From Candidatus Kapaibacterium sp. (GTDB lineage: Bacteria > Bacteroidota > Ignavibacteria > Palsa-1295): a stretch of 64,000 bases of DNA. Below the pieces are notes generated by a model. It saw nothing but the letters and a program-made list of their open reading frames with translations, was not told the DNA's origin and searched no databases. Each line of letters opens with the position of its first letter. Positions within the stretch are counted from its first letter, which is position 1. The DNA is taken from contig JADGPZ010000002.1 in assembly GCA_017882165.1 (NCBI GenBank), positions 14,142 through 78,141 of the forward strand, read 5' to 3'. Positions 6,375 through 44,399 of the stretch are shown piece after piece. A program made the position numbers and the translations under genes.

Positions 6375-8081
6375 TTGAAACGCACCTTCGACATTGCACT
6401 GGCCATTCTTGGCCTCGCCGTTATCGCGTTATTCACCACGCGTTACCGGATGCCATTCCGTTTGGACGACATCCTCCTGATGGAGTGGTCGCTCGCGCAC
6501 CACTGGTGGGACGCGTTCGATCCGATCAAGGGACAACTCGTAAATAGCTATCGGCCGGTCTTTGCGCTCGCGGCGTATGGTCTCACCCACGTCGCTGGCT
6601 GGGCGCACCCTTTTTGGTGGCACCTGAAGCTCTGCTCGACGCTGATTATCGGTCTCGCGTTCGTCGGCATGACCTCGCGGCAAATCGCGGGCCGTTGGTA
6701 CGCGCTCGAAATCTCGGTACTGCTCTATCCCATCGCCTTTGCGACGATACTGAATGTCTTCTTCTGGTACAGCGATCTGACGTATGGTCTTGAATTAGTT
6801 TTTACGGCACCAGCGTGGTATTTCGGCTTGCGGGGGTTGCGCGAAGGACGGCTCACGTTCTGGCTCTTGGCGATGCTGCTCGGCACGCTCGCCGTGCTTT
6901 CAAAAGAACCGGCATTTGTACTGGTGCATGTGGTGCTGATTTGGTCCTTGTTGGAAGAGCGGGCATGGACCAAGTGGACGGGATGGACACGATGGACGGC
7001 GATCGGCGCTTACGGGGTGCTCGTTGCTGTGACGGCATTCATAATAATCAACTCGCCGACGCGGGGCAATCGTTTTCTTTCGCTGGCTTCCCCAGGAATT
7101 GGGGAGGCGGTGCGCGAGCGGATCAATTATTATAGTGCCGTCTATCTTGCCACTGTTCCGAGGCTGCTCATCTTCTTGCCGATCGTATTTGTCGCGTTGC
7201 GCGAGTTCTTCCGAAGACTCGGCAGAGGCGCATCTCTCGTGGATTTCTTCATGCTCACCGTACTCGCCGCCGTAGCGAGTGTGTTGCTCTTTACGAACAT
7301 CCTGATCGCGGTCCCGCTGCTGTTCGTAATTCTTGTGATGCTCGCCATCACGCCGAATGAAGAACAAACGCGCGCCCGGCGGCTTCTGCCATTTGCCCTC
7401 TGCCTTATGCTTGCGATGGGCGCGCTGCTTTTTACGGTGCAGCTCGTCAAGACACAGCTTACGGAAGTGGCGATCCTATCGGTTATCGTCAGCGGCTGGG
7501 CGTGGTGCGTGTGGGGGGAGGATCTGTCGGAGAAGATGAAATCGATTCAGAATCGTCGAATGCGAATCGCCGTCGCCGTAGTTTTGGTAGCATGTGAAGC
7601 GATGGTTATTGTATCATCCATCCCAAAGATGAAGGCCGAAGAGCACATGCTTCGCGACGTGCGGGACGTGCGGCAGAACGCGAACGATGCGCTGACGTGG
7701 TCAGCCAAGAATCTGCCGGAGAATTCGCTCTTCGCGCTTGCGGTCTATGCGTTGCATGGTATCGAGCATCAGAATCTGCTCACGCCGAAAGACGATGCGA
7801 CCAAACTCCGGTCACAATACACGTTCGATGGCGGATTCGTCTATCACGTTTTGGAAGTGCTGGGTCGCCGCGATATTCGTCACGCCTATCTGGAGGATAC
7901 CGCGATGCTGCCGCGCGTCCTCGCGGCCATGCGTCGCGAGCCGAATTCCTATCTCTTCCTACAGTCGGAGTTGGACCTGAAGCTATTTCACGGGCAACCG
8001 TCACTCATCCAGCCATCGGATACGCTCGTCGCCCGGTTTGCGCGCGGGCCGTATCCGTGCGAGGTGTGGTTGTTACACTAA
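6375..8081 (+). CDS. Polytopic integral membrane protein, GT-C fold (ArnT/PMT/GT39-like) glycosyltransferase candidate; TTG start
   Basis: At least 10 predicted TM helices in the N-terminal ~420 aa. An acidic DD motif (RLDDILL) follows TM1 as in GT-C enzymes, and the C-terminal domain is soluble. No closer family assignment is possible by eye. Confidence 0.4.
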   Translation: MKRTFDIALAILGLAVIALFTTRYRMPFRLDDILLMEWSLAHHWWDAFDPIKGQLVNSYRPVFALAAYGLTHVAGWAHPFWWHLKLCSTLIIGLAFVGMTSRQIAGRWYALEISVLLYPIAFATILNVFFWYSDLTYGLELVFTAPAWYFGLRGLREGRLTFWLLAMLLGTLAVLSKEPAFVLVHVVLIWSLLEERAWTKWTGWTRWTAIGAYGVLVAVTAFIIINSPTRGNRFLSLASPGIGEAVRERINYYSAVYLATVPRLLIFLPIVFVALREFFRRLGRGASLVDFFMLTVLAAVASVLLFTNILIAVPLLFVILVMLAITPNEEQTRARRLLPFALCLMLAMGALLFTVQLVKTQLTEVAILSVIVSGWAWCVWGEDLSEKMKSIQNRRMRIAVAVVLVACEAMVIVSSIPKMKAEEHMLRDVRDVRQNANDALTWSAKNLPENSLFALAVYALHGIEHQNLLTPKDDATKLRSQYTFDGGFVYHVLEVLGRRDIRHAYLEDTAMLPRVLAAMRREPNSYLFLQSELDLKLFHGQPSLIQPSDTLVARFARGPYPCEVWLLH

Positions 8082-8131
8082 GATTGGTGTAGTGTGGAGT
8101 TCTACTCTATACATTCCGCCAGTGGCGAGGG

Positions 8132-28625: not shown

Positions 28626-31010
28626 ATGAGGTTTCGTGACCAGGACGAACTGTTTGGCGAGCCCGTGCTTCGTGCAGGGGTGGCCACGCCGCGCGCCGCT
28701 CCACGCCAGAATCCTGATGTTCGCTCGCAGGAACAACCGCGTCCATCAGCTCCGGTGTTTGGAGGAGCAAATGAGGATGTCCGCGGTACCCCGGTAGTCG
28801 AAGACGAGACTCGATCTGGAGCAGAGCCGCTATTGAAGCGATTCTTCGCAGCACCCAAACCCGCTAATGCCTTGACGAGCAATGGCCGTTTGTATACGGT
28901 ACTCATTTGCTTCCTGTTCGCGCTTGTCTTAGTTGTTGGCAAGCTCTTCAAACTTCAGGTGCTCGACCATGCTGCGTTTTCGCGCGAGGCTGCGGGGCAG
29001 TATAAGATGGTGTCAGCGATTCCGGCACGCCGCGGAGTTGTCCGCGATCGTCATGGGATGATCCTCGCGACGAATGCCTACGTTGTCAAATACGCGGTCG
29101 ACCCACGCGCGATCCAGCACAAGGAGCAGCTCGCAGCGCTCTTCTCCGAGGTGTTCGGTCGTCCGGTGAAGACGTATCTCGCACTGTTCAGCGATACGTC
29201 TCGGCGGTTTGTCGTCGTGGAAAAGGAAGTACCTCTCGAAGTTGCCGCGAGGCTCGATACCGTGAAAGACCACGGGCTAATTAGTTTGCGCGATTCACGC
29301 CGAAACTACGCATTTGGCGAGCGAGCCTCGCATGTGCTCGGCTTTGCCAGCAAGGATGGACGCGGGCTGGCCGGTATCGAACTGCTCGCGAACCGCGATC
29401 TCGCTGGCCGCGCGGGTACACAGATCATGCAGAAGGATGGGCACGGTGCGCTCCGGCCCGATGTGGACTATGAGAAGACGGCTGCTTTAGACGGAGAAAA
29501 CCTCACGCTCACAATCGACGAAGCGATTCAATCGGCCACTGAAACGGCGCTCAAGGCCGGAGTTGAAAAAGCGGGCGCGGAAGCGGGCATCGCGATTGTC
29601 CTGCGTCCTTCGACGGGTGAAATCCTTGCACTTGCAAACGTGCCGGATTTCGACCCGAACAAGTTTGGCATTGCAACAAACGACATGCTTCGCAATCGCG
29701 CGATCACGGATGCCTATGAGCCGGGTTCGACGATCAAAGTTCTGACTGCTTCGGCAGCACTCGAGGACGGCGTGTGGAAGCCGGACGACAAGATCGACGC
29801 CGAGCACGGCCATTGGGCGCCGGAGAAAGGCGTACACATTACGGACACGCATCCCTACGGGATTCTCACGTTTCGGCAGGCACTCGAGAAGTCGAGTAAT
29901 ATTTCTTTCGCCAAGATCTCGGACCGACTTGATCGCCGCCGTTTCTACAAATACTTGCGCGATTTCGGAATTGGCAATTACACCGGCATCGATCTTCCGG
30001 GCGAGGTCAAAGGCGTGCTGCACACGCCGGGAAACTGGCAAGCGAACTCGAAGCGATACATGGCCTTCGGCTACGAGATGACAGCTACACCGATGCAGAT
30101 GGCCGTGGCCTATGCGACCGTGGCGAATTTCGGTCTCATGATGAAGCCCTACATCATCGCTCGGCGCGACGGCCCGAATGGACCCATCGAGACGCAGCCG
30201 CAGGAAATTCGGCGTGTCATCAGCGAGCAAACGTGCCGGACGCTGATTAGTATCATGGAAGGTGTCGTCGATTCCGGAACGGCAACGCTCGCGCAGATCA
30301 AGGGTGTGCGCATCGCAGGCAAGACAGGCACGGCACAGCAGCTCGTCGATGGCCATTGGTCGAAGGAGCATTACACTTCCAGCTTTACAGGCTTTTTCCC
30401 GGCGCGAAAACCGGAGTATTTGATCAGCGTTATCCTTCGCTCACCGCATAATGGCTATTACGGCGGCACGGTCAGCGGGCCGATCTTTCGGGAGATCGCG
30501 ATGCGCATCATGGATATGAACGGCACTCTTCCGGCTGAGGCGCGGACGCAGATGAAGCAAGAGAAGCCGGCCGTCGATGAAGGCGTCGTCGATATCGACG
30601 GTATGTTGCTCACGACGCGATCGGAGCAGAGGCAGATGCCGAACGTGCTCGGCCTTTCGGTCGAGCAGGGGCGCTCAGTGCTGGCAAGCCAGGGGTTCGT
30701 CGTCCGTGGAGCATTGGCGAAGGATGCTCAGGACGGCATCATCGACAATGTCGAAAAGTGTGGTGGGGATACTGTTCGCTTCCAAATCGTACATCCTGAC
30801 GCGAGACAAGAAGATCGCGCCGTCGCAATGCCCGCGCTAGTGGGCCTTCCGATGACGCGCGCGATCAAATACGCATCGGCAAAGGGATTGCGCGTGCATG
30901 CCAATGGCCAGGGGACTGTCACAAGACAGGAACCGAATCCAGGGGCGTTGCTCGGTATGGAGGCGACCGGCGGTAGCCCGACCGTTACGCTCTTCGGCGA
31001 AGAACAATAA
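28626..31010 (+). CDS. ftsI: Peptidoglycan D,D-transpeptidase FtsI (class B PBP) with two C-terminal PASTA-like domains
   Basis: TM anchor, SxxK (STIK), SxN (SSN) and KTGT motifs. The C-terminal ~150 aa form two PASTA-like repeats. The N-terminal ~70-aa basic/proline-rich extension is uncertain. Confidence 0.85.
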   Translation: MRFRDQDELFGEPVLRAGVATPRAAPRQNPDVRSQEQPRPSAPVFGGANEDVRGTPVVEDETRSGAEPLLKRFFAAPKPANALTSNGRLYTVLICFLFALVLVVGKLFKLQVLDHAAFSREAAGQYKMVSAIPARRGVVRDRHGMILATNAYVVKYAVDPRAIQHKEQLAALFSEVFGRPVKTYLALFSDTSRRFVVVEKEVPLEVAARLDTVKDHGLISLRDSRRNYAFGERASHVLGFASKDGRGLAGIELLANRDLAGRAGTQIMQKDGHGALRPDVDYEKTAALDGENLTLTIDEAIQSATETALKAGVEKAGAEAGIAIVLRPSTGEILALANVPDFDPNKFGIATNDMLRNRAITDAYEPGSTIKVLTASAALEDGVWKPDDKIDAEHGHWAPEKGVHITDTHPYGILTFRQALEKSSNISFAKISDRLDRRRFYKYLRDFGIGNYTGIDLPGEVKGVLHTPGNWQANSKRYMAFGYEMTATPMQMAVAYATVANFGLMMKPYIIARRDGPNGPIETQPQEIRRVISEQTCRTLISIMEGVVDSGTATLAQIKGVRIAGKTGTAQQLVDGHWSKEHYTSSFTGFFPARKPEYLISVILRSPHNGYYGGTVSGPIFREIAMRIMDMNGTLPAEARTQMKQEKPAVDEGVVDIDGMLLTTRSEQRQMPNVLGLSVEQGRSVLASQGFVVRGALAKDAQDGIIDNVEKCGGDTVRFQIVHPDARQEDRAVAMPALVGLPMTRAIKYASAKGLRVHANGQGTVTRQEPNPGALLGMEATGGSPTVTLFGEEQ

Positions 31011-35483: not shown

Positions 35484-35557
35484 GGGTGTAGGGTATAGGG
35501 TGTAGGGTATGAATACCCTGCATCCTCTACCCTATACCCTAAACGCTATACCCTATG
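35484..35557. repeat. Nested palindrome built from TAGGGTAT / ATACCCT units spanning the mraY-murD junction and the murD start codon
   Basis: gggtgTAGGGTATAGGGTGTAGGGTATgaATACCCTgcatcctctACCCTATACCCTaaacgctATACCCTATG. The murD ATG (35555) lies inside the 3' arm. Confidence 0.55.
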
Positions 35558-36907
35558 TTAGTCCGTGGCAAACGTTTTTCGATCTTAGGTGCCGGCAGGT
35601 CCGGCCTCGCGGTCGCGCGCTTGCTCAAGACGCGACGGGCCAAAGTATTTCTTTCCGAGAGCGGCAAAAAGTCGAAGTTCGAGGATGCCGCGCGCGAGTT
35701 GGACGAGATTGGAGTCGAGTACGAGTTTGGGAACAACACGCACCGCGTGCTCGATGCCGATTATGTCATACTTAGCCCCGGCGTTCCAATGGAAGCGCCG
35801 ATCGTAAAGCTCGCGCGAGAGAAGGGTATCAAGATCTTGGCAGAGATCGAGATCGCGTTCGATCAATGCGAAGTGCCGGTCATTGCAATCACAGGCACGA
35901 ACGGAAAGACGACGACGACAACGCTCGTCGGGGAGATATTCAAGCGCGCCGAGTGGAACACGCTGGTTGCCGGCAACATCGGAATTGCGTTCTCGGAAAT
36001 TGTCGATCAGGCGAAAGGCGAAAAGGCGGTGGTCGTGCTCGAAGTATCGAGCTTCCAGCTCGATGCGATCGATACGTTCCGACCAAAGGTCTCCGCCATC
36101 TTGAATATCACGCCGGACCACTTAGACCGATACAAGAATTACGAAGCCTATATCCAGTCGAAGTTTCGGATTGTCGAGAACCAGAAGGGACACGATGTCT
36201 TCGTCTATAATCACGATGACGAGACCGTCCGCAATGTTGCGGAAACTGTCAGTGTCCGAACACTCGGATTTTCGCTAAAAGAAGAACTGAAGCAAGGCGC
36301 CTATCTGCAAGGCGACGACATCGTCCTTCGCATTGGCCGCGAAAAGGAAGTGCTGATGAACCGCGCGGAGATCGGCATTCCGGGGCCGCACAATCTGATG
36401 AACGCCATGGCGGCGGCGCTCATGACTCGGACGATGGGTGTCGAGTTCGACGTGATTCGCGAGACGATGCGTGAATTCAAGGGCGTCGAGCATCGCATCG
36501 AATTCGTCCGCGAGTTGAACGGCGTGAAGTATTACAACGACTCCAAAGCGACGAACGTCGATTCGGTTTTTTACGCACTCGGTAGCTTTGCAGAGCCGAT
36601 CATCCTTATCGCCGGTGGCAAGGACAAAGGCAACGATTACTCGAAGATCAAAGATTTAGTCGAGGAGCATGTGAAGGCAATTGTCACCGTCGGCAAAGGT
36701 GCCGAGAAGATCGAGAAATTCTTCAAAGGGATGAAGCCGATTCACTCTGCCGGGATGTCGATGGAGGAAGCCGTGCGATTAGCGAAGGACGCTGCCGCAC
36801 CTGGCGACATTGTGCTCCTCTCACCCGCCTGCGCGAGCTTCGACATGTTCGATAATTACGAACACCGGGGGAGAGTGTTTAAGAAATTAGTGAATCAATT
36901 GAAATGA
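35555..36907 (+). CDS. murD: UDP-N-acetylmuramoylalanine--D-glutamate ligase
   Basis: N-terminal Rossmann GxGxxG (ILGAGRSGLAVARLL), P-loop IAITGTNGKTTTT, and Mur ligase C-terminal domain. Confidence 0.9.
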   Translation: MLVRGKRFSILGAGRSGLAVARLLKTRRAKVFLSESGKKSKFEDAARELDEIGVEYEFGNNTHRVLDADYVILSPGVPMEAPIVKLAREKGIKILAEIEIAFDQCEVPVIAITGTNGKTTTTTLVGEIFKRAEWNTLVAGNIGIAFSEIVDQAKGEKAVVVLEVSSFQLDAIDTFRPKVSAILNITPDHLDRYKNYEAYIQSKFRIVENQKGHDVFVYNHDDETVRNVAETVSVRTLGFSLKEELKQGAYLQGDDIVLRIGREKEVLMNRAEIGIPGPHNLMNAMAAALMTRTMGVEFDVIRETMREFKGVEHRIEFVRELNGVKYYNDSKATNVDSVFYALGSFAEPIILIAGGKDKGNDYSKIKDLVEEHVKAIVTVGKGAEKIEKFFKGMKPIHSAGMSMEEAVRLAKDAAAPGDIVLLSPACASFDMFDNYEHRGRVFKKLVNQLK

Positions 36908-36917
36908 AATTTCCAAT

Positions 36918-37325
36918 ATGGATCCCGTTATCGGCATTCTAACATCGATTGTTATCCTCGCGATTATTTACCTCTGCGTATGGCTAATTCTGAGAATGCT
37001 CATTCGAAGAAGAATCATCAGCGTGCTAATTTCTTCCCTCATTGCACTAATCGTATTTGCAGTGCTCATTACATGGTCCTATTCAAAATGGTATGAACAC
37101 CATATTAAGAGCCTCTCATACGTTGATCCTATCGCTGCGAAGTTCTTTCATGAGCATCCGCTTCGAAGGGATAGCCTGCTCGGAATGACGAAACCGCAAG
37201 TGTTTACCACACTGGGCCTGCCGGAAGATACTGCCGGAGATCGAATCGTTTACACAATCGAACCATACTACCGGACGATTGTCCTATTTTTTAAGAATGG
37301 AACGGTAATCGAAGTTGAGAAATGA
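36918..37325 (+). CDS. Small membrane-anchored protein with BamE/SmpA-OmlA-like C-terminal domain, inserted between murD and ftsW
   Basis: Two N-terminal TM helices. C-terminal GMTKPQVFTTLGLPEDT...RIVYTIEP...VLFFKNGTVIEVEK resembles the BamE fold pattern. GC content is visibly lower than the flanks. Its stop overlaps the ftsW start. Confidence 0.45.
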   Translation: MDPVIGILTSIVILAIIYLCVWLILRMLIRRRIISVLISSLIALIVFAVLITWSYSKWYEHHIKSLSYVDPIAAKFFHEHPLRRDSLLGMTKPQVFTTLGLPEDTAGDRIVYTIEPYYRTIVLFFKNGTVIEVEK

Positions 37326-38497
37326 AACCCAAACGTACTGCCGACCTTAGTCTTTTTTTGGCCGTGACTGGCCTGTTGCTCGCGTCGTTGGCGTTCGTTT
37401 ATACGGCGAGCGCGCACTTCAGCTCGATCAGGGGCACAAGCGAGTCGATGCTCTTCAATCACGCGAAGAAAGTCTTCTTGTCCTTTGCGGCAATGCTTTT
37501 CTTCACGAAGATCGACTACCACAAGTTCGAGAAGCATACGAAGTGGATCATGCTCTCCTCGCTTCTTCTGTTGGTGATGGTACTCTTTGTCGGCACGCGG
37601 GAGCTTGGCGCAAAGCGCTGGCTTGCGCTCGGGCCACTCAGCTTCCAACCGGCGGAGTTTGCAAAGTTCGCCTTGGTGCTGCATGTTGCAGCGCTCTGCG
37701 CGGCGAAGCAGGAGATCATCGGCGATTTCAAGAAGGCATTCTTGCCGATTGTGGCCTGGGCCATTGCGGCGGCAGCGCTGATTGCCAAGCAGCCGAATAT
37801 GTCCACTGCAAGCGTACTGGTGCTCATCACGTTCGGCATCATGTATGTGGCGCAAGTGCCGATGAAGTACATGCTCAGCACCGGGGCGCTGGCCGTGTTC
37901 GGTGGCGGGATCTTCGCGCTGACTGCAAGCTATCGCGTTCAACGGATGCTGGCCTTCGTTGGACATCACAATGCGAGTACGGACAAAGTCACGTATCAGC
38001 TCGATCAGGCGCTGCTCGCCTTTGGTAATGGCGGAATATTCGGAGTCGGCATAGGGCAGTCAAAGCAAAGCATGTTCTTCTTGCCGGAGTCGTATGGCGA
38101 CTTTATTTACTCCGTGATCGGCGAGGAGTACGGGTTTATCGGTGCGGCGCTGCTTGTGGTCCTCTTCGGCTTCATCATTGTGCGGGGCTTCCAGATCGCC
38201 AAGCACGCGCCGGACACATTCGGGCGATTCACGGCTTTCGGTATTACGATGACAATTGCAATTTACGTCATCATCAACGCCTTCGTCAACGTTGGGCTGA
38301 TGCCCGTGACCGGACTACCGATGCCATTCGTGAGCTATGGCGGCACAAGCATGATCTTTGGCGCGGCGGCAGTTGGAATTCTGCTGAATATTTCGAAGCA
38401 TGTTGAATTGCTTCCGCGCGCCTCGACGGTCTCGCTATTCGATCGGCTTGAGCGGCTCTTTCGTCCGCGATCGGAGGAAGGAGCACAACCGGCTTGA
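37322..38497 (+). CDS. ftsW: Peptidoglycan glycosyltransferase FtsW (SEDS family)
   Basis: Ten TM helices and SEDS motifs (GIGQSKQ, PESYGDFIYSVIGEE, PMPFVSYGGTS). Confidence 0.85.
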   Translation: MKPKRTADLSLFLAVTGLLLASLAFVYTASAHFSSIRGTSESMLFNHAKKVFLSFAAMLFFTKIDYHKFEKHTKWIMLSSLLLLVMVLFVGTRELGAKRWLALGPLSFQPAEFAKFALVLHVAALCAAKQEIIGDFKKAFLPIVAWAIAAAALIAKQPNMSTASVLVLITFGIMYVAQVPMKYMLSTGALAVFGGGIFALTASYRVQRMLAFVGHHNASTDKVTYQLDQALLAFGNGGIFGVGIGQSKQSMFFLPESYGDFIYSVIGEEYGFIGAALLVVLFGFIIVRGFQIAKHAPDTFGRFTAFGITMTIAIYVIINAFVNVGLMPVTGLPMPFVSYGGTSMIFGAAAVGILLNISKHVELLPRASTVSLFDRLERLFRPRSEEGAQPA

Positions 38498-39606
38498 TGA
38501 AGAGCGCAAAGAAGACAATCCTCATCGCTGCAGGTGGCACGGGCGGCCATTTGTATCCGGCATTGGCAGTCGCGGAAGAGATTCGCCGCATGCGGCGGGA
38601 TGTCCGTGTCATCTTCGTCGGCACCCGCAAGCGGATCGAGTCGCGCGAGGTGCCGAGAGCCGGGTTTCCGTTTCATCCGATCAAAATCGAAGCACCGCGC
38701 AAGTCTGCGGCAGGAATGCTGCGATTTCCATTCCAATTCGCCGCTGCCACGGTTGATTGTATGCGACTGATGTCCGGCGAGCGGCCTGCAGCGATGCTGG
38801 GCGGTGGCGCGTATCTCAGCGTGCCAGTAGGCATTGCGGCCTGGATCATGCGAATGCCGATAGCGCTACTCGAAATTAACTCGATCGCCGGTTCAGCGAA
38901 TAAACTCCTCGCGCCATTTGCGGATAAGCTGTTCGCGGCCTATCAGGAATCGCTCGATCAATTCACAAAACCTCTTGCACAATCGGCGATTGTCTGCGGA
39001 ACGCCCGTGCGGCCCGAGCTCGGCGCGCTCCAGCTTTCGCAAGCGGAGGCAAGATCGAGTTTCGGCCTCGACGCCGCACGCCGGACGATCTTCATATTCG
39101 GCGGTTCGCTCGGTGCGCGACCGATTAACGAAGCGGTCGAGAGTGCGGCCCCGGGGCTTACCCAGCAGGGGTACAACATCCTGTGGCAGACCGGAAAGAG
39201 CGCTGACGCCGAGCGTCTACGCGAGAAGTTTAGGAATCAGCCGAACGTTCGTGCGATGGAGTACATTTACGAGATGGAGCGGGCCTTCCGCGCTGCGGAC
39301 TTAGTCGTGTGTCGCGCGGGAGCATCGTCGCTGGCCGAGCTTGCACGGCTTGGGAAGCCAACGGTGCTGGTTCCGTGGTCGGGCGCGATGGCGAACCATC
39401 AGGAGATGAACGCACTTGCATTCGAGAAGGATGGAGCGGCCGTAGTGCTTCAAGACGGCGAAGTCAGAGACCGATTGTTAGAGACGGTCCTGTTGTTGCT
39501 TCACGATCCAGAACGATTACGCACGATGTCAGAGGCAATGGCCCGCAGAGACAAACCGGATGCTGCAAAGATTGTGGCCGAATGGTTGTTAGAGAGAGTC
39601 ACATGA
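38497..39606 (+). CDS. murG: UDP-GlcNAc:undecaprenyl-PP-MurNAc-pentapeptide GlcNAc transferase
   Basis: N-terminal GGTGGH(L/V)xPAxAV motif (AAGGTGGHLYPALAVAEE) and GT28 C-terminal domain. The ATG at 38497 overlaps the ftsW stop. Confidence 0.9.
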   Translation: MKSAKKTILIAAGGTGGHLYPALAVAEEIRRMRRDVRVIFVGTRKRIESREVPRAGFPFHPIKIEAPRKSAAGMLRFPFQFAAATVDCMRLMSGERPAAMLGGGAYLSVPVGIAAWIMRMPIALLEINSIAGSANKLLAPFADKLFAAYQESLDQFTKPLAQSAIVCGTPVRPELGALQLSQAEARSSFGLDAARRTIFIFGGSLGARPINEAVESAAPGLTQQGYNILWQTGKSADAERLREKFRNQPNVRAMEYIYEMERAFRAADLVVCRAGASSLAELARLGKPTVLVPWSGAMANHQEMNALAFEKDGAAVVLQDGEVRDRLLETVLLLLHDPERLRTMSEAMARRDKPDAAKIVAEWLLERVT

Positions 39607-40124
39607 CCGAGGAATCAACACACGTCTATCGAGCACGCCTCGATTTCCTGTATCAGTCTATCGCGATGTACGCGGTGGCGCTGGTGCTATATCTCATTGT
39701 TCGGTCGTCCGTTGCATCCGAGGCGTTTCCTTCGCTATGGCAGGACCCACTGTTGTTCCTGCTCTCCGCAATCACGTTGATTTCCGTTTGTGCCTTGGCT
39801 TATAATCTATTTATGGGCCGCCAAATTGAGATCGCACGGGATGCAATCCGGTTTAAGAGCCGCGCGCGCCAGCGCTCTGTGGCGCGATCTGAGGTAGCCT
39901 TTCTGCAATTCGGACCGCGGTTTCGCCAGCCTCGCGGACGTATCCGTGTCGTACGCATTCGGTTGAAAGGCGAGCGGCGCCCAATCCGAATTCGTCTGGC
40001 GAACTTCGATCGCCGCAGACAGTTGCTTGCCGACTTGCGCCAGTGGGCGGGACCGCTGGGCAGAGAAGCGCGTCCGGCGTCAGGCGCGCCACGTAAGATA
40101 GCGCTCGGGAAGGAGTCTGGCTGA
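39603..40124 (+). CDS. Small 2-TM membrane protein with basic, possibly bacterial-PH-like, C-terminal domain, between murG and murC
   Basis: The ATG overlaps the murG stop (ATGA). Two TM helices (IAMYAVALVLYLIV, LLFLLSAITLISVCALAY) and an Arg-rich C-terminal ~90 aa. Part of the frame overlaps the murG 3' end, so the call is tentative. Confidence 0.35.
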   Translation: MTEESTHVYRARLDFLYQSIAMYAVALVLYLIVRSSVASEAFPSLWQDPLLFLLSAITLISVCALAYNLFMGRQIEIARDAIRFKSRARQRSVARSEVAFLQFGPRFRQPRGRIRVVRIRLKGERRPIRIRLANFDRRRQLLADLRQWAGPLGREARPASGAPRKIALGKESG

Positions 40125-40135
40125 GGCCAGCGACT

Positions 40136-41560
40136 ATGCGTCACGTTCATTTTATTGGCATCGGCGGAGCCGGTACGAGCGGGCTTGCGGAGATATTGCT
40201 GCTCCGGGGCATCGAAGTCTCCGGAAGCGATCTGGTTGCGAATGCAAAGACGGACGAACTCGCATTGCTTGGCGCGACCATCCATGAAGGACATGCCGGG
40301 CAGAATGTGAACGGGGCGGATATCGTCGTTTATTCTTCCGCCGTGCATCGCGACAATCCTGAATACGCGGAAGCCGTGCAGCGCGGTGTTCGAATCCTTC
40401 GCCGTGCGGACTTCATGGCCGAGCTACTGGCCGATCACAGTGTCATTGCCGTTGCTGGCACGCACGGAAAGACCACGGTGACCAGTATGATCGCCTCGAT
40501 CCTCATCGAGGCAAAGCTCGATCCGCTCGTGCTTGTTGGCGCCAGCGTTGCGGAACTGGATGGGAAGAATTCGCGCGCCGGGACCGGACGCATTGCCGTT
40601 GTTGAAGCGGACGAGTACGATCGCAGCTTCCTCGCGCTCCGGCCATTCATCGCCGTCATGACCTCTCTTGAAGAAGAGCACCTCGATATATACAAAGACT
40701 TGGACGATCTGAAAGACGCGTTCGTCGAGTTCGCGAACCAGGGTCCATCATCGCCGCAAACCGGATACGCGGTTGTTTGCATCGATGAGCCAGCCTTGCG
40801 CGCCATCACACCACGGCTTCAGAAGCGGATCGTGAGTTATGGCCTTCGGTCGATGGAAGCAAAGTATCGTGCGACGAACGTTTTGCTGAGTGCCCAACGG
40901 ATGCGTGCAACGATCATGCGAGGCAGCGATGCAGTTGGAGAGTTGGAATTACGCGTACCCGGGGAGCACAATATCTACAATGCGCTTGCCGCGCTGACCG
41001 TCGGAGAGATCTTATCGATTCCTTTCGAGACCTCGGTGCGGGCGCTGAAACGCTTTACGGGTGCCGAGCGGCGGTTTGAACGTATCGGCGAGGCTGCCGG
41101 TGTGGTTGTGATCGATGATTACGCGCATCATCCCACCGAAGTCCGAGAGACGCTCCTGACAGCCCGAAAATGCTATCCGGGCCGGCGCATCGTCGCGTGT
41201 TTCCAGCCGCACACATTTACGCGGACACGTGATTTTGCAACTGGTTTCGGCCAGGTATTTGCGGAACTTGCCGATGTGCTCGTGCTGCTGGACATATATC
41301 CGGCGCGCGAACAGCCGATTGAAGGTGTCACCAGTAAGCTGATCGCCGAGGCGGTGCTGGAGCTGAAGGAAATCCATGAGGTTGCAACCGTCGAAGAGTT
41401 GCCGGATCGGGTCGTCGCGATCGCGCAGGCCGGCGATGTCATCCTGACCATCGGCGCCGGGACGATTACGAACGCAGCCCGACCGATATTCGAACTCATG
41501 AAGGATAGGGAGCAAACTGGTGTTACCGTGCCGGCCTCAGAATTTGCCATCGCACAATGA
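40136..41560 (+). CDS. murC: UDP-N-acetylmuramate--L-alanine ligase
   Basis: N-terminal HFIGIGGAGTSGLAEIL, P-loop AVAGTHGKTTVTSM, and Mur ligase domains. Confidence 0.9.
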   Translation: MRHVHFIGIGGAGTSGLAEILLLRGIEVSGSDLVANAKTDELALLGATIHEGHAGQNVNGADIVVYSSAVHRDNPEYAEAVQRGVRILRRADFMAELLADHSVIAVAGTHGKTTVTSMIASILIEAKLDPLVLVGASVAELDGKNSRAGTGRIAVVEADEYDRSFLALRPFIAVMTSLEEEHLDIYKDLDDLKDAFVEFANQGPSSPQTGYAVVCIDEPALRAITPRLQKRIVSYGLRSMEAKYRATNVLLSAQRMRATIMRGSDAVGELELRVPGEHNIYNALAALTVGEILSIPFETSVRALKRFTGAERRFERIGEAAGVVVIDDYAHHPTEVRETLLTARKCYPGRRIVACFQPHTFTRTRDFATGFGQVFAELADVLVLLDIYPAREQPIEGVTSKLIAEAVLELKEIHEVATVEELPDRVVAIAQAGDVILTIGAGTITNAARPIFELMKDREQTGVTVPASEFAIAQ

Positions 41561-43026
41561 CCCAAGAAACTCCCATACACGAGATAGAAGAAACGCCATC
41601 CCCCTTGGAGATGGTGACCGATGAGAGTACCATCCCTTCGGATGGCGCTGCTTCGGATGTCGCTTCAGAAGAAACGGAAGCTCCACCCACCGATGGTGCG
41701 GTCGCTGCCAATGGCACGGCCCGCCGCGAATACCGCCCGCAAAGGGAGCGTGAGCCACGGGAGCGTGAGCCGCGCGCGCGAAAGGCACGCAAACCAGCCC
41801 CAGCAATCTTCGAGCGCTTTGTCGTCATCCGCTGGTCCGGACGCCGCGAGCCGGTCGATGATATGTTCTGGGCCGAGGCGACCAAGGAAGGCGAGTGGAT
41901 GGTCCTGACGGAGTTCGAGCAGATCCGTTCTCGCAAGGATATTTTGGCACGGCTACTGGAATTGCCGCCTGCGTTGGTCGCGCTTGATTTCCCGCTCAGC
42001 TATCCCGCTGACTTTTTCGAATTTTTGAAGGGCGAAGGGATCACCGACTGGAGATCGCTCGCAAAGCGAGTGCGGGAGGATCTCAAAAAGAACGTTGATG
42101 ACGGCGTGCGGCTTTGGATCGAACGGATGGGCGCCTATCGTGAGTCGCGGTTGGAAGACGAAGCACTCTGGCCCGATCGCCGGGACGACCGCTACAACGA
42201 CCGCCGAGGCGACCGGTATAACGATCGAGGGAATGACCGGTACAACGATCGCCGCTCGCCACTACCTCGTGAGCCTTTAGCACCCTACGAGCGCGGATCG
42301 CTCGCCGAGCGCTTTCGCCGCACGGACCATGCCCTGCGCCGCGTGGCCGACCGGCATCTTGTCAGTCCGGTTCAGATTGGTTACAACCGTCTGACCAATC
42401 GTTATGAGTTTACCGATGCGAACTCGCAGGGCCGCGCGGCGCTGCTTGGCATGTCGATGCTCGATCAAGTGCTCGATGTTCGTCAAGATGCGGCAGTCTG
42501 GCCGATGATGGCGCCGAAGCCGCTGACAATCGTTGAGGTGTTGCCATGGGTCTTCACCGCTGGTGACCGGTTGCAACCCGATGTGCTTCGGAAGCAAATG
42601 GCCACACTGGAAGATCGCGGCTGGGATATCCCGAGTCATGCGATCGACCAGGCCGCTCGAAATCCCGAGGCGCAAAGTGCCCTCCGGTGTTTGCTCGGCA
42701 TGATTAAGACCGAGAGCCGAGAGGATCGGCAACGGCGCCCGATCCGCGATTACTTGCCTGCATTCTATGATGATCCGCAGGTCAAACTCGAAGGGTGGTT
42801 CTATAGCGTTGGCTATCGGTCGATGACTGAAGAATCCAAATCGGAGCACCCACATAAGGAGGAAGCGAAAGACTCGCATCCGAAAGAGAAGCAAGAGACC
42901 AAGAAGAATATAGCGCTGCCAACGCCTCTGGAGAGTGTCCAGACCGAAAGTCCGGAAGCAGCAGTCCTTGCCGAAGTGACCGAACCCGCTGTTTCTGCGG
43001 AAGCCGAGCAAGAGCCAAGCCTTTAG
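41557..43026 (+). CDS. Hypothetical 489-aa protein inserted between murC and ftsQ: acidic/RE-rich termini, three DRYND repeats, possible RNase-H-like (DUF429-like) core
   Basis: The ATG overlaps the murC stop (ATGA). It contains a 21-nt tandem DNA repeat x3 (GACCGCTACAACGACCGCCGA...) encoding DRYNDRRGDRYNDRGNDRYNDRR. Core motifs VVIRWSGRRE, LVALDFPLSYP, RTDHALRRV...SPV and TIVEVLPWVF loosely resemble DUF429-type proteins. The fold assignment is speculative. Confidence 0.5.
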   Translation: MTQETPIHEIEETPSPLEMVTDESTIPSDGAASDVASEETEAPPTDGAVAANGTARREYRPQREREPREREPRARKARKPAPAIFERFVVIRWSGRREPVDDMFWAEATKEGEWMVLTEFEQIRSRKDILARLLELPPALVALDFPLSYPADFFEFLKGEGITDWRSLAKRVREDLKKNVDDGVRLWIERMGAYRESRLEDEALWPDRRDDRYNDRRGDRYNDRGNDRYNDRRSPLPREPLAPYERGSLAERFRRTDHALRRVADRHLVSPVQIGYNRLTNRYEFTDANSQGRAALLGMSMLDQVLDVRQDAAVWPMMAPKPLTIVEVLPWVFTAGDRLQPDVLRKQMATLEDRGWDIPSHAIDQAARNPEAQSALRCLLGMIKTESREDRQRRPIRDYLPAFYDDPQVKLEGWFYSVGYRSMTEESKSEHPHKEEAKDSHPKEKQETKKNIALPTPLESVQTESPEAAVLAEVTEPAVSAEAEQEPSL

Positions 43027-43175
43027 ACGAGAGCAGTGGAGCTTCCGCTGCCCGCAAGCCCTATTTGCATTGCCTCTCAACGAGGCAAGCCTTTAACTCA
43101 CGTATTTCATTTTTCAGCGAACGCTGTTTTCGTGCTGCGCGCAGGCAACTGTGCGTGTTTGCGAAAGTTTTTGCT

Positions 43176-44399
43176 ATGCGATTTACGATCAATCCGCCGA
43201 ATGGCGGCCGCAAAGAACTGACGAATCTTCGGGCGCGGGAGCCGGACGATCTCGTCCGGCAGCGACTGGGCGAGCGACAGAGCGAGCACCTTGGCGCGTC
43301 CGCACTGCGGACGGATGTAGAGGCATATCTCGATCGGGCGGCCGCGAGCGACGCTCCCGAAAGCGAGAGCATGCCGAGCGATACGTTCGAACAGTTCCTT
43401 GCGGAGGATACTCATGATTTATCTGGAACGAACGGTGACGAAGGGACTTCCTGGAGGCATTCTCGCTGGGCACCGGCGCTATTTCTTCTGGCAGTTGGTG
43501 CGCTAGCTTCACTGTGGTACTTCGCGGCGCATTTCGATCGCTCGCTCGCGCTTGAGAGCGTAAAAGTGGAAGGTGCCGATCTTGTGGCCGAGCGGGAGAT
43601 CGTCCGGCTTGCCGCAATCGACATGAAGCAAGCATTCTACTCGATCGACCTCCGGCGCATTGAGTCGAGGGTCGCGCAGCACTCTTTAGTCAAACATGTG
43701 CATGTTCGCCGAGAACTGAGTCCGGCAAGCATCGTCATCTCCATCGAAGAACGGCGGCCAGTGGCGATGCTAAAGTCAGATTCGTCGGGTGAGACTTATC
43801 TTATCGATCGGGATGGACACCTGCTTCGACCCAAGCTGCTTGCGGGTCTCAGCGATCCCGCGCGTTTGCTCGCGGTGCCACTCCTGAGCGGTGTGAGCGA
43901 GCGGGACACGGTCGGCTTCCAGGCGATGGCGCGACTCGTCGCGACGATCGGCGCGATTGACTCCGGGGCGTTGGGCAAAGCGATCGGCGAATTGCGCCGG
44001 ACGCCCAACGGATCATACGTCATCTATACTGCCGAGACACAGACGCCGATCTTCATCGGATCGCCGTTCGACGCACCATTTCAGACCGCGCTTGAAGAAG
44101 AGCGTGGCACAACCACGCGCGTGACAAACGATCACTTCTTCATGACACAGATCGCGCTGCTTGCCAAAGTCTGGAGATCCAAGCTTGAGAAGTCGCTCCG
44201 GGCCGGCGATGCGCTCTATGTCGATGCGCGGTTTCGAGGGCAGATCATCCTGAAGCGCCGCAACCAAGCCATGCTGCATGGTGCGCCGCCAGCATCTCAG
44301 AAATTTTCTGGACTCAATGGACTTGATGGACGATGTGGACCGTCCACCGCGTCCATGGTGTCCGTTCCGTCCATCGAGTCCATTCAGTCCACATCATAA
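43176..44399 (+). CDS. ftsQ: Cell division protein FtsQ/DivIB-like (POTRA domain)
   Basis: Position before ftsA. Single TM (WAPALFLLAVGALASLWYF) followed by a POTRA-like LESVKVEGADLVAEREIVRLAAID...IESRVAQHSLVKHVHVRRELSPASIVISIEERRP. Start chosen at ATG 43176. The cytoplasmic tail is unusually long. Confidence 0.6.
   Translation: MRFTINPPNGGRKELTNLRAREPDDLVRQRLGERQSEHLGASALRTDVEAYLDRAAASDAPESESMPSDTFEQFLAEDTHDLSGTNGDEGTSWRHSRWAPALFLLAVGALASLWYFAAHFDRSLALESVKVEGADLVAEREIVRLAAIDMKQAFYSIDLRRIESRVAQHSLVKHVHVRRELSPASIVISIEERRPVAMLKSDSSGETYLIDRDGHLLRPKLLAGLSDPARLLAVPLLSGVSERDTVGFQAMARLVATIGAIDSGALGKAIGELRRTPNGSYVIYTAETQTPIFIGSPFDAPFQTALEEERGTTTRVTNDHFFMTQIALLAKVWRSKLEKSLRAGDALYVDARFRGQIILKRRNQAMLHGAPPASQKFSGLNGLDGRCGPSTASMVSVPSIESIQSTS

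Follow-up and report, generated by a model that had tools for sequence, protein, structure and literature searches.

The division and cell wall (dcw) operon of a Candidatus Kapaibacterium genome carries, between murD and ftsW, a small and compositionally foreign gene, which we call orfX, at a junction whose content differs even among closely related genomes. The gene lies in a 64,000-nucleotide stretch of contig JADGPZ010000002.1 (hereafter the window) and encodes a protein of 135 amino acids in which two predicted transmembrane (TM) helices precede a C-terminal domain that very probably has a BamE/BLIP-like fold. Given the parallels described below, we tentatively favor the view that orfX may be an orphan immunity or inhibitor protein directed against a periplasm- or membrane-acting cell-wall toxin and housed in a slot of fast turnover.

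A foreign gene packed into the dcw operon

The window holds a complete dcw cluster (mraZ, rsmH, ftsL, ftsI, murE, murF, mraY, murD, orfX, ftsW, murG, orf173, murC, orf489, ftsQ, and ftsA). An earlier sequence-only reading of this DNA had described a low-GC open reading frame (ORF) between murD and ftsW, and we found the ORF as described, on the forward strand and with the quoted peptide motifs in its translation (Table 1). Its GC content is 0.436, compared with 0.567 for the 64-kb window; the low-GC contrast that had been claimed is therefore real, although the surroundings had been put at ~60% GC and the genes around orfX are in fact at 53-59%. When GC was calculated for 408-nt segments at 10-nt steps, the 20 lowest values all fell at 36761-36961, overlapping the 3′ end of murD and orfX, and segments as GC-poor as orfX made up 0.17% across the 64-kb window. 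A scan of GC and codon adaptation, which the sequence-only reading had proposed as a check, was run on 47 non-overlapping ORFs of at least 100 amino acids from the window and pointed the same way: orfX has the lowest overall GC of the set, the lowest GC at third codon positions (GC3; 0.471 against a mean of 0.663 and a standard deviation of 0.052, with the next lowest at 0.551), and the lowest value of an index similar to the codon adaptation index (0.55, where the mean is 0.689 and the next lowest ORF has 0.597). orfX is compositionally foreign. The flanks adjoining the slot were also checked for odd composition as a sign of recombination tracts, and neither was odd.

By our own arithmetic from base frequencies, the probability that an ORF of 135 codons arises by chance at the composition of orfX is ~4e-4. 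orfX is a genuine coding gene, because a protein-level homolog exists elsewhere in the same frame and at the same position. It runs in the same direction as the operon and is fitted closely into it, with a 10-nt spacer after murD and an ATGA overlap with ftsW. The latter agrees with the sequence-only reading, which had noted that the stop of orfX overlaps the ftsW start: the TGA at 37323-37325 overlaps the ATG at 37322. This ATG is the conserved start of ftsW, because the N-terminus MKPKRTADLSLFL is common to all relatives.

Both flanking genes are conserved, with MurD 68-90% identical in 11 close relatives and FtsW 67-86% identical in close relatives. The nearest species representatives have a MurD that is 88% identical, and the relatives of MurD point to a Kapaibacterium-like lineage of the Ignavibacteriota/Bacteroidota. 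An independent Logan assembly carries an identical copy of the locus (L001). No promoter-like or terminator-like sites were found on the forward strand within or upstream of orfX; terminator-like matches on that strand occurred only in ftsW, and their total count was at chance level. A mobile element or cassette (transposon, integron cassette, or miniature inverted-repeat transposable element) was considered at this position and rejected: orfX is flanked by no direct or inverted repeats of any note, and there were no terminal inverted repeats, target-site duplication, attC-like hairpin, adjacent recombinase, or other cassette signature beyond chance.

A family of two detected members

We searched for relatives of orfX using several approaches. 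A word-indexed search of 5.8 billion clusters returned orfX itself only, and the same type of search with a two-sequence profile returned orfX and one further protein, P0003. An exhaustive HMMER search of 1.84 billion representatives likewise identified P0003 as the one true relative (E 4.4e-5). Another HMMER match, P0002 (3398 aa, E 2e-19), was rejected as spurious because its score adds together 24 weak matches, each of 29 residues, to a tandem repeat. A scan of viral contigs and a BFVD fold search gave no relative of orfX, scans against Pfam, NCBIfam, PADLOC, and PHROGs gave sub-threshold transmembrane noise or nothing, and no paralog or second protein with the GMTK motif was found in the window.

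The full-length form of P0003, P0004 (153 aa), is 34% identical to orfX (BLASTP 1e-13) and has the same architecture, consisting of two hydrophobic helices, a strongly basic loop, a linker, a LIGMTKREVIKLLGVPSDT helix, and terminal strands. Features common to the two proteins include a PI..A..F/Y linker, an R.D.L.GMTK..V...LG.P.DT motif, and a terminal FK.G.VI strand. The P0004 gene lies on a 1.3-kb contig from soil. It immediately follows a murD 3′ end with 90% identity to that of the window and starts a slot whose ftsW 5′ end, 138 bp beyond the gene, shows 86% identity; its GC3 is 0.40, compared with 0.65-0.68 in its flanks. Only as proteins, translated in the coding frame, do the slot sequences of orfX and P0004 resemble each other. 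The homologs share 34% identity whereas the MurD and FtsW segments beside them share 86-90%, which points to rapid evolution in this one comparison. As far as sequence searches detect it, the orfX family has two members among ~15 billion sequences, both of them between murD and ftsW.

The murD-ftsW slot varies among close relatives

The slot was compared across 12 close genomes, namely the window locus (Logan copy L001) and 11 loci with a MurD at least 68% identical to it (Table 2). This comparison, also put forward in the sequence-only reading, showed that the slot is occupied in 7 of the 12 genomes by five unrelated cargo types, and that an orfX-type gene is absent from 10 of the 11 relatives, in which the slot is either empty or holds unrelated cargo. 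All cargo lies on the operon strand, tight against ftsW, and has a lower GC content than its own locus. In an all-against-all comparison of the slots, the only related sequences were orfX and P0004, the two LprI proteins (weakly), and a shared hairpin spacer.

Table 2 Content of the murD-ftsW slot in the 12 close genomes.
Locus	Gap (bp)	Content
L008, L011	1	empty
L007	82	empty
L002	131	two hairpins only
L010	154	empty
Window	414	orfX
L006	488	164-aa LprI/PF07007 protein
L009	582	174-aa PLD-like protein, lipobox-like N-terminus
L082	601	orfX homolog and hairpin spacer
L005	750	250-aa secreted unknown
L004	949	309-aa LprI protein
L003	1815	HNH_repeat+MUG113/T5orf172 homing-endonuclease-like gene and 280-aa unknown

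A more distant set, obtained from a metagenome scan with the MurD C-terminus and comprising listed matches of at most 64% identity, served as outgroups only. Among these matches, 141 distant genomes or contigs had a median murD-ftsW gap of 27 bp, none exceeded 250 bp, and the slot was always empty, with outgroups in which murD and ftsW lie 1-5 bp apart. Taken together, the variety of slots in close genomes and the empty slots in distant ones therefore indicate that the empty slot is the ancestral state, and that it has repeatedly been filled, emptied, or replaced. Slot content does not track flank similarity: the flanks of L082, which carries the orfX homolog, are 92-93% identical to those of L002 (empty) and L003 (endonuclease-like gene) and 89% identical to those of the window.

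The sequence-only reading had inferred that orfX was horizontally acquired. Its foreign composition and patchy distribution support an insertion, but no donor was found in searches of sequence representatives or viral contigs, and it is consequently composition and distribution that argue for acquisition. An alternative concerning the origin of orfX and not its function is that it is an ancestral gene of the sub-clade that has been inherited vertically, evolves very fast, and is often lost. The location of both known family members at the murD-ftsW position of related genomes fits such a history, as does the failure of the searches to find a donor or any other context, or a mobile-element signature flanking orfX. 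We nevertheless consider it unlikely, since flank identity does not make the two carriers closest kin, murD and ftsW lie 1-5 bp apart among the listed outgroups, GC3 is 0.40-0.47 in both copies as opposed to 0.65-0.71 in the flanks, and several independent losses and replacements would be needed.

Several further observations concern this and neighboring junctions. In L003 the slot carries a free-standing homing-endonuclease-like gene (7397-8086, forward strand) with two HNH_repeat domains and a MUG113/T5orf172 domain, which hints at one possible route of cargo entry at the junction. In three close relatives, a GC-rich hairpin spacer that includes GCCCAGGGTGAAGCGAAGCGGAACCCTGGG immediately precedes ftsW (L002 7379-7456; L003 8100-8150 and 9061-9116; L082 972-1027), occurring twice in L002 and once behind each cargo gene in L003, with folding z-scores of -4.2 to -6.6 (L082, L002). 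It is absent from the whole window. When it was compared with known RNAs, its only match was a sub-threshold one on the opposite strand, to Rfam Acido-Lenti-1 (RF01687), which scored 32.2 bits where the gathering score is 37. The other dcw junctions are mostly constant, with occasional inserts in the clade at mraY-murD (L008, L010) and murF-mraY (L004). The low-GC insert of L008 (3132-4767) encodes two lipoprotein-like proteins of 252 aa, that of L010 (4673-5799, minus strand) a 268-aa protein of low GC whose end is overlapped by a second minus-strand ORF of 134 aa, and that of L004 (4407-4769) an ORF of 120 aa, likewise in a low-GC insert.

Membrane topology and predicted fold

Hydropathy supports the two TM helices proposed in the sequence-only reading (Table 1), and the Arg-rich loop between them has its equivalent in P0004 (RKKLIHRKRAR). 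Because two TM helices flank this loop, the positive-inside rule predicts that the C-terminal domain should face the periplasm, with the loop in the cytoplasm and both termini in the periplasm. A two-helix hairpin would thus hold the protein in the inner membrane and leave a domain of ~70 residues in the periplasm. The label of lipoprotein given to it previously is wrong, because orfX has no signal peptide or lipobox. Its N-terminus (MDPVIG) lacks a basic n-region, and its only Cys (C20, in IYLC), which lies inside the first TM helix and outside any lipobox, has no counterpart in the homolog, a protein devoid of Cys.

Table 1 Coordinates of features in the window.
Feature	Position	Strand	Description and basis
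ftsI	28626..31010	+	FtsI/PBP3 homolog
murD	35555..36907	+	450 aa, conserved upstream flank; Mur ligase domains called on identical Logan contig
Spacer	36908..36917	+	10 nt, AATTTCCAAT, from murD stop to orfX start
orfX	36918..37325	+	135-aa accessory gene; only homologs P0003/P0004
Predicted TM helix 1	36927..36995	+	~residues 4-26; hydropathy peak; AlphaFold2 helix with predicted local distance difference test (pLDDT) >89; conserved in P0004
Arg-rich loop	36993..37013	+	RMLIRRR, residues 26-32; from sequence; cytoplasmic by positive-inside rule (inferred)
Predicted TM helix 2	37014..37082	+	~residues 33-55; second hydropathy peak; conserved in P0004
Predicted periplasmic C-terminal domain	37101..37322	+	residues 62-135; motif LLGMTKPQVFTTLGLPEDT; BamE/BLIP-like helix-helix-strand-strand-strand
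ATGA overlap	37322..37325	+	orfX stop and ftsW start; translational coupling junction
ftsW	37322..38497	+	391 aa, conserved downstream flank; FTSW_RODA_SPOVE (Pfam E 2.7e-92)
orf173	39603..40124	+	173 aa, between murG and murC
orf489	41557..43026	+	489 aa, between murC and ftsQ
ftsQ	43065..44399	+	FtsQ homolog, 444 aa

To predict the fold we used AlphaFold2 on full-length orfX and on residues 62-135, and both runs gave the same C-terminal secondary structure, with domain pLDDT values of ~65-87; the two helices followed by three strands that are expected of BamE were present in the prediction. BamE, BLIP, OsmE, and OmlA headed both fold searches, and members of this superfamily dominated the structural neighbors. 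Foldseek against the PDB placed Neisseria gonorrhoeae BamE first (E 0.022, probability 0.97), and its top 11 also included BamE in the BAM complex, YjgB/DUF4309, and a BLIP-like protein. The second fold search gave values of 5.1 for BLIP-like 3d4e, 5.0 for TpgA, 4.9 for BLP and BLIP, 4.8, 4.5, and 4.3 for BamE, 4.1 for BtiO, an immunity protein of the Bacteroides fragilis type VI secretion system (T6SS), and 4.0 for OsmE. At the sequence level, neither full-length orfX nor its C-terminal domain matched PF04355 (SmpA_OmlA) even at E<=10, and the C-terminal part of P0003 reached 14.1 bits (E 0.04), below the gathering score of 23.2 bits. PDB sequence searches with orfX gave non-significant matches only (E ~1), and OsmE and BamE were two of the three weak PDB profile matches. 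The description of orfX as BamE-like in the sequence-only reading thus stands for the predicted fold but not for membership of the Pfam BamE/SmpA_OmlA family. We consider it highly probable that the C-terminal domain has a BamE/BLIP-like fold and, judging from its sequence, conclude that it represents a new family with a different membrane anchor.

Possible functions of orfX

The closest published parallel is Imm-BamE, a class of BamE-like immunity proteins that evolve rapidly, are anchored in a membrane, and belong to polymorphic toxins of the Lipocone (Min-Wnt, CapCone) and colicin-M-like types (Burroughs et al., eLife 2025, PMC12419801). These toxins target lipid head groups, and Imm-BamE proteins work in the periplasm of groups that include Bacteroidota (PMC12419801). 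We liken orfX to this class by its published description and not by sequence: orfX would share with it the predicted BamE-like helices followed by three strands, a predicted membrane anchor, and a predicted periplasmic site, and it likewise shows fast turnover or evolution; the class occurs in the Fibrobacterota-Chlorobiota-Bacteroidota (FCB) group and in Bacteroidota. There are also differences, in that Imm-BamE proteins are mostly lipoprotein-anchored (LP+Imm-BamE) whereas orfX has a two-helix TM hairpin, and the adjacent polymorphic toxin gene (Min-Wnt, CapCone, or colicin-M-like) expected of the class is missing, orfX having murD and ftsW as its neighbors. BLIP, BLP, and BLIP-like proteins (1jtg_B, 3gmx_B, 3d4e_A) are secreted protein inhibitors that share the predicted fold, but no sequence similarity, with orfX; BLIP itself differs in being a secreted, soluble tandem duplication of the fold unit. 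BtiO (9uu1_A) of B. fragilis is a periplasmic T6SS immunity protein that counters a cell-wall-disturbing effector (PMC12541434). It has a cleavable signal peptide and is encoded beside its effector in a T6SS variable region, neither of which applies to orfX. Lastly, the LprI/DUF1311 domain, cited as a lysozyme inhibitor implicated in T6SS immunity (PMC12135965), occurs in the same slot of two sister genomes (L006, L004).

Because of the parallels with Imm-BamE, BtiO, and the LprI/DUF1311 proteins of the same slot, we favor an immunity or inhibitor role for orfX. The periplasmic domain would be a protein-binding module that serves as an inhibitor or as an orphan immunity factor and counters a cell-wall-targeting toxin or enzyme active in the periplasm or at the membrane. 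Expression would be passive, through read-through transcription of the dcw operon and translational coupling, so that orfX would be expressed together with the lipid-II pathway, and coupling through orfX would also preserve the translation of FtsW. Three points weigh against this proposal and keep it tentative: the slot contains no toxin gene and the neighbors of orfX are murD and ftsW, the anchor is a TM hairpin with no lipoprotein signal, and the confidence of the predicted fold is modest.

A broader and more speculative proposal, which we regard as unlikely on present evidence, is that the murD-ftsW junction, and to a lesser extent other dcw junctions, may be an exchange slot for envelope-defense cargo in this lineage of Kapaibacteria. 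The cargo would be orphan immunity or inhibitor proteins, such as orfX and the LprI/DUF1311 proteins of sister genomes; the conserved essential flanks would serve as homology arms for allele replacement; and operon transcription and coupling would guarantee expression wherever lipid II is made and used. Replacement-type flexible genomic islets, such as O-antigen or capsule loci, are found between conserved core genes. The murD-ftsW slot resembles these in having conserved flanks around non-homologous, low-GC cargo of the same orientation that differs between close relatives. It differs in being tiny (0-1.8 kb, one or two genes), in lying inside an essential and normally invariant operon, and in having no integrase or transposase at the slot.

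Alternatively, orfX could be an accessory factor of the divisome or of peptidoglycan synthesis, with the hairpin and periplasmic domain binding FtsW/FtsI or lipid-II enzymes and tuning septal wall synthesis. This would explain the translational coupling of orfX to ftsW, and it suits the position between murD and ftsW with its ATGA overlap, a small bitopic or hairpin membrane protein with a predicted periplasmic domain, and the presence in the cluster of other conserved, non-canonical small membrane ORFs such as orf173. Such machinery should be conserved, however, and orfX is absent not only from nearly all close relatives but from all 141 distant genomes (among the matches listed), with unrelated genes holding the same position in other genomes. 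In addition, its sole homolog is 34% identical although the flanks are ~89% identical, and its composition is foreign, unlike that of the conserved orf173 (GC3 0.62). We therefore find a divisome role improbable.

That orfX is a functionless passenger or young ORF, tolerated since operon transcription and the coupling from murD to ftsW stay intact, appears to us still harder to credit. The gene is nearly an orphan with the poorest codon adaptation in the window, and the slot tolerates many unrelated inserts or none; yet the protein architecture (two TM segments, basic loop, linker, motif, and terminal strand) has been kept across 34% identity, the similarity to the homolog is confined to the coding frame, and the predicted fold is compact and reproducible. 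A true BamE/SmpA-OmlA envelope lipoprotein involved in outer-membrane protein assembly can be dismissed as extremely improbable: BamE, OsmE, and OmlA (PF04355) are outer-membrane lipoproteins, whereas orfX lacks a signal peptide, lipobox, conserved Cys, and PF04355 match, is held to the inner membrane by its predicted hairpin, and is not conserved among sister genomes, from nearly all of which a core BAM subunit would not be missing. Its patchy distribution likewise speaks against a core role beside BamA/BamD in the BAM complex. Set against these alternatives, an immunity or inhibitor function remains our preferred, if tentative, interpretation.

Other genes of the cluster

The two other non-canonical ORFs of the cluster, orf173 and orf489, are conserved and compositionally native, in contrast to orfX. 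The start of orf173 overlaps the stop of murG as ATGA. Its product has hydrophobic segments near the N-terminus, is rich in Arg in its C-terminal half, and matches nothing in Pfam. It is kept at its position in 48 fetched Ignavibacteria/Kapaibacteria loci at 24-64% identity, and from these sequences it looks like an uncharacterised, lineage-wide gene of the dcw cluster. orf489 has acidic and Pro-rich tails, a DRYNDR-type repeat, and no Pfam match, and is conserved (36-55% identity) only in close Kapaibacteria loci. The FtsI/PBP3 homolog carries a PASTA domain at its C-terminal end (residues 733-774; Pfam E 3e-9), a domain that on such proteins is more usual in Gram-positive PBP2x-type proteins. 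In the FtsQ homolog the POTRA domain begins only at residue 162, implying an N-terminal extension of ~160 residues with no Pfam match.

Implications

The dcw cluster is a standard case of conserved gene order, and here one of its junctions is a locus that varies at the species level. The fold of the orfX domain and immunity proteins of that fold were already known; new are the sequence family, the combination of a TM hairpin with a BamE-like domain, and the species-level variable dcw slot. In its predicted fold and fast turnover, orfX corresponds to a class of periplasmic immunity proteins that was described only recently. If the immunity interpretation is true, anti-toxin defenses can sit in an essential cell-wall operon and be co-expressed with the pathway under attack, and low-GC inserts between murD and ftsW would offer a simple genomic marker for new envelope-protective proteins. 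If the exchange-slot proposal also holds, the junction would be a "defense islet" inside the most conserved operon in bacteria. Should the immunity interpretation prove wrong, orfX would still be a clean case of an accessory gene captured by translational coupling in an essential operon.
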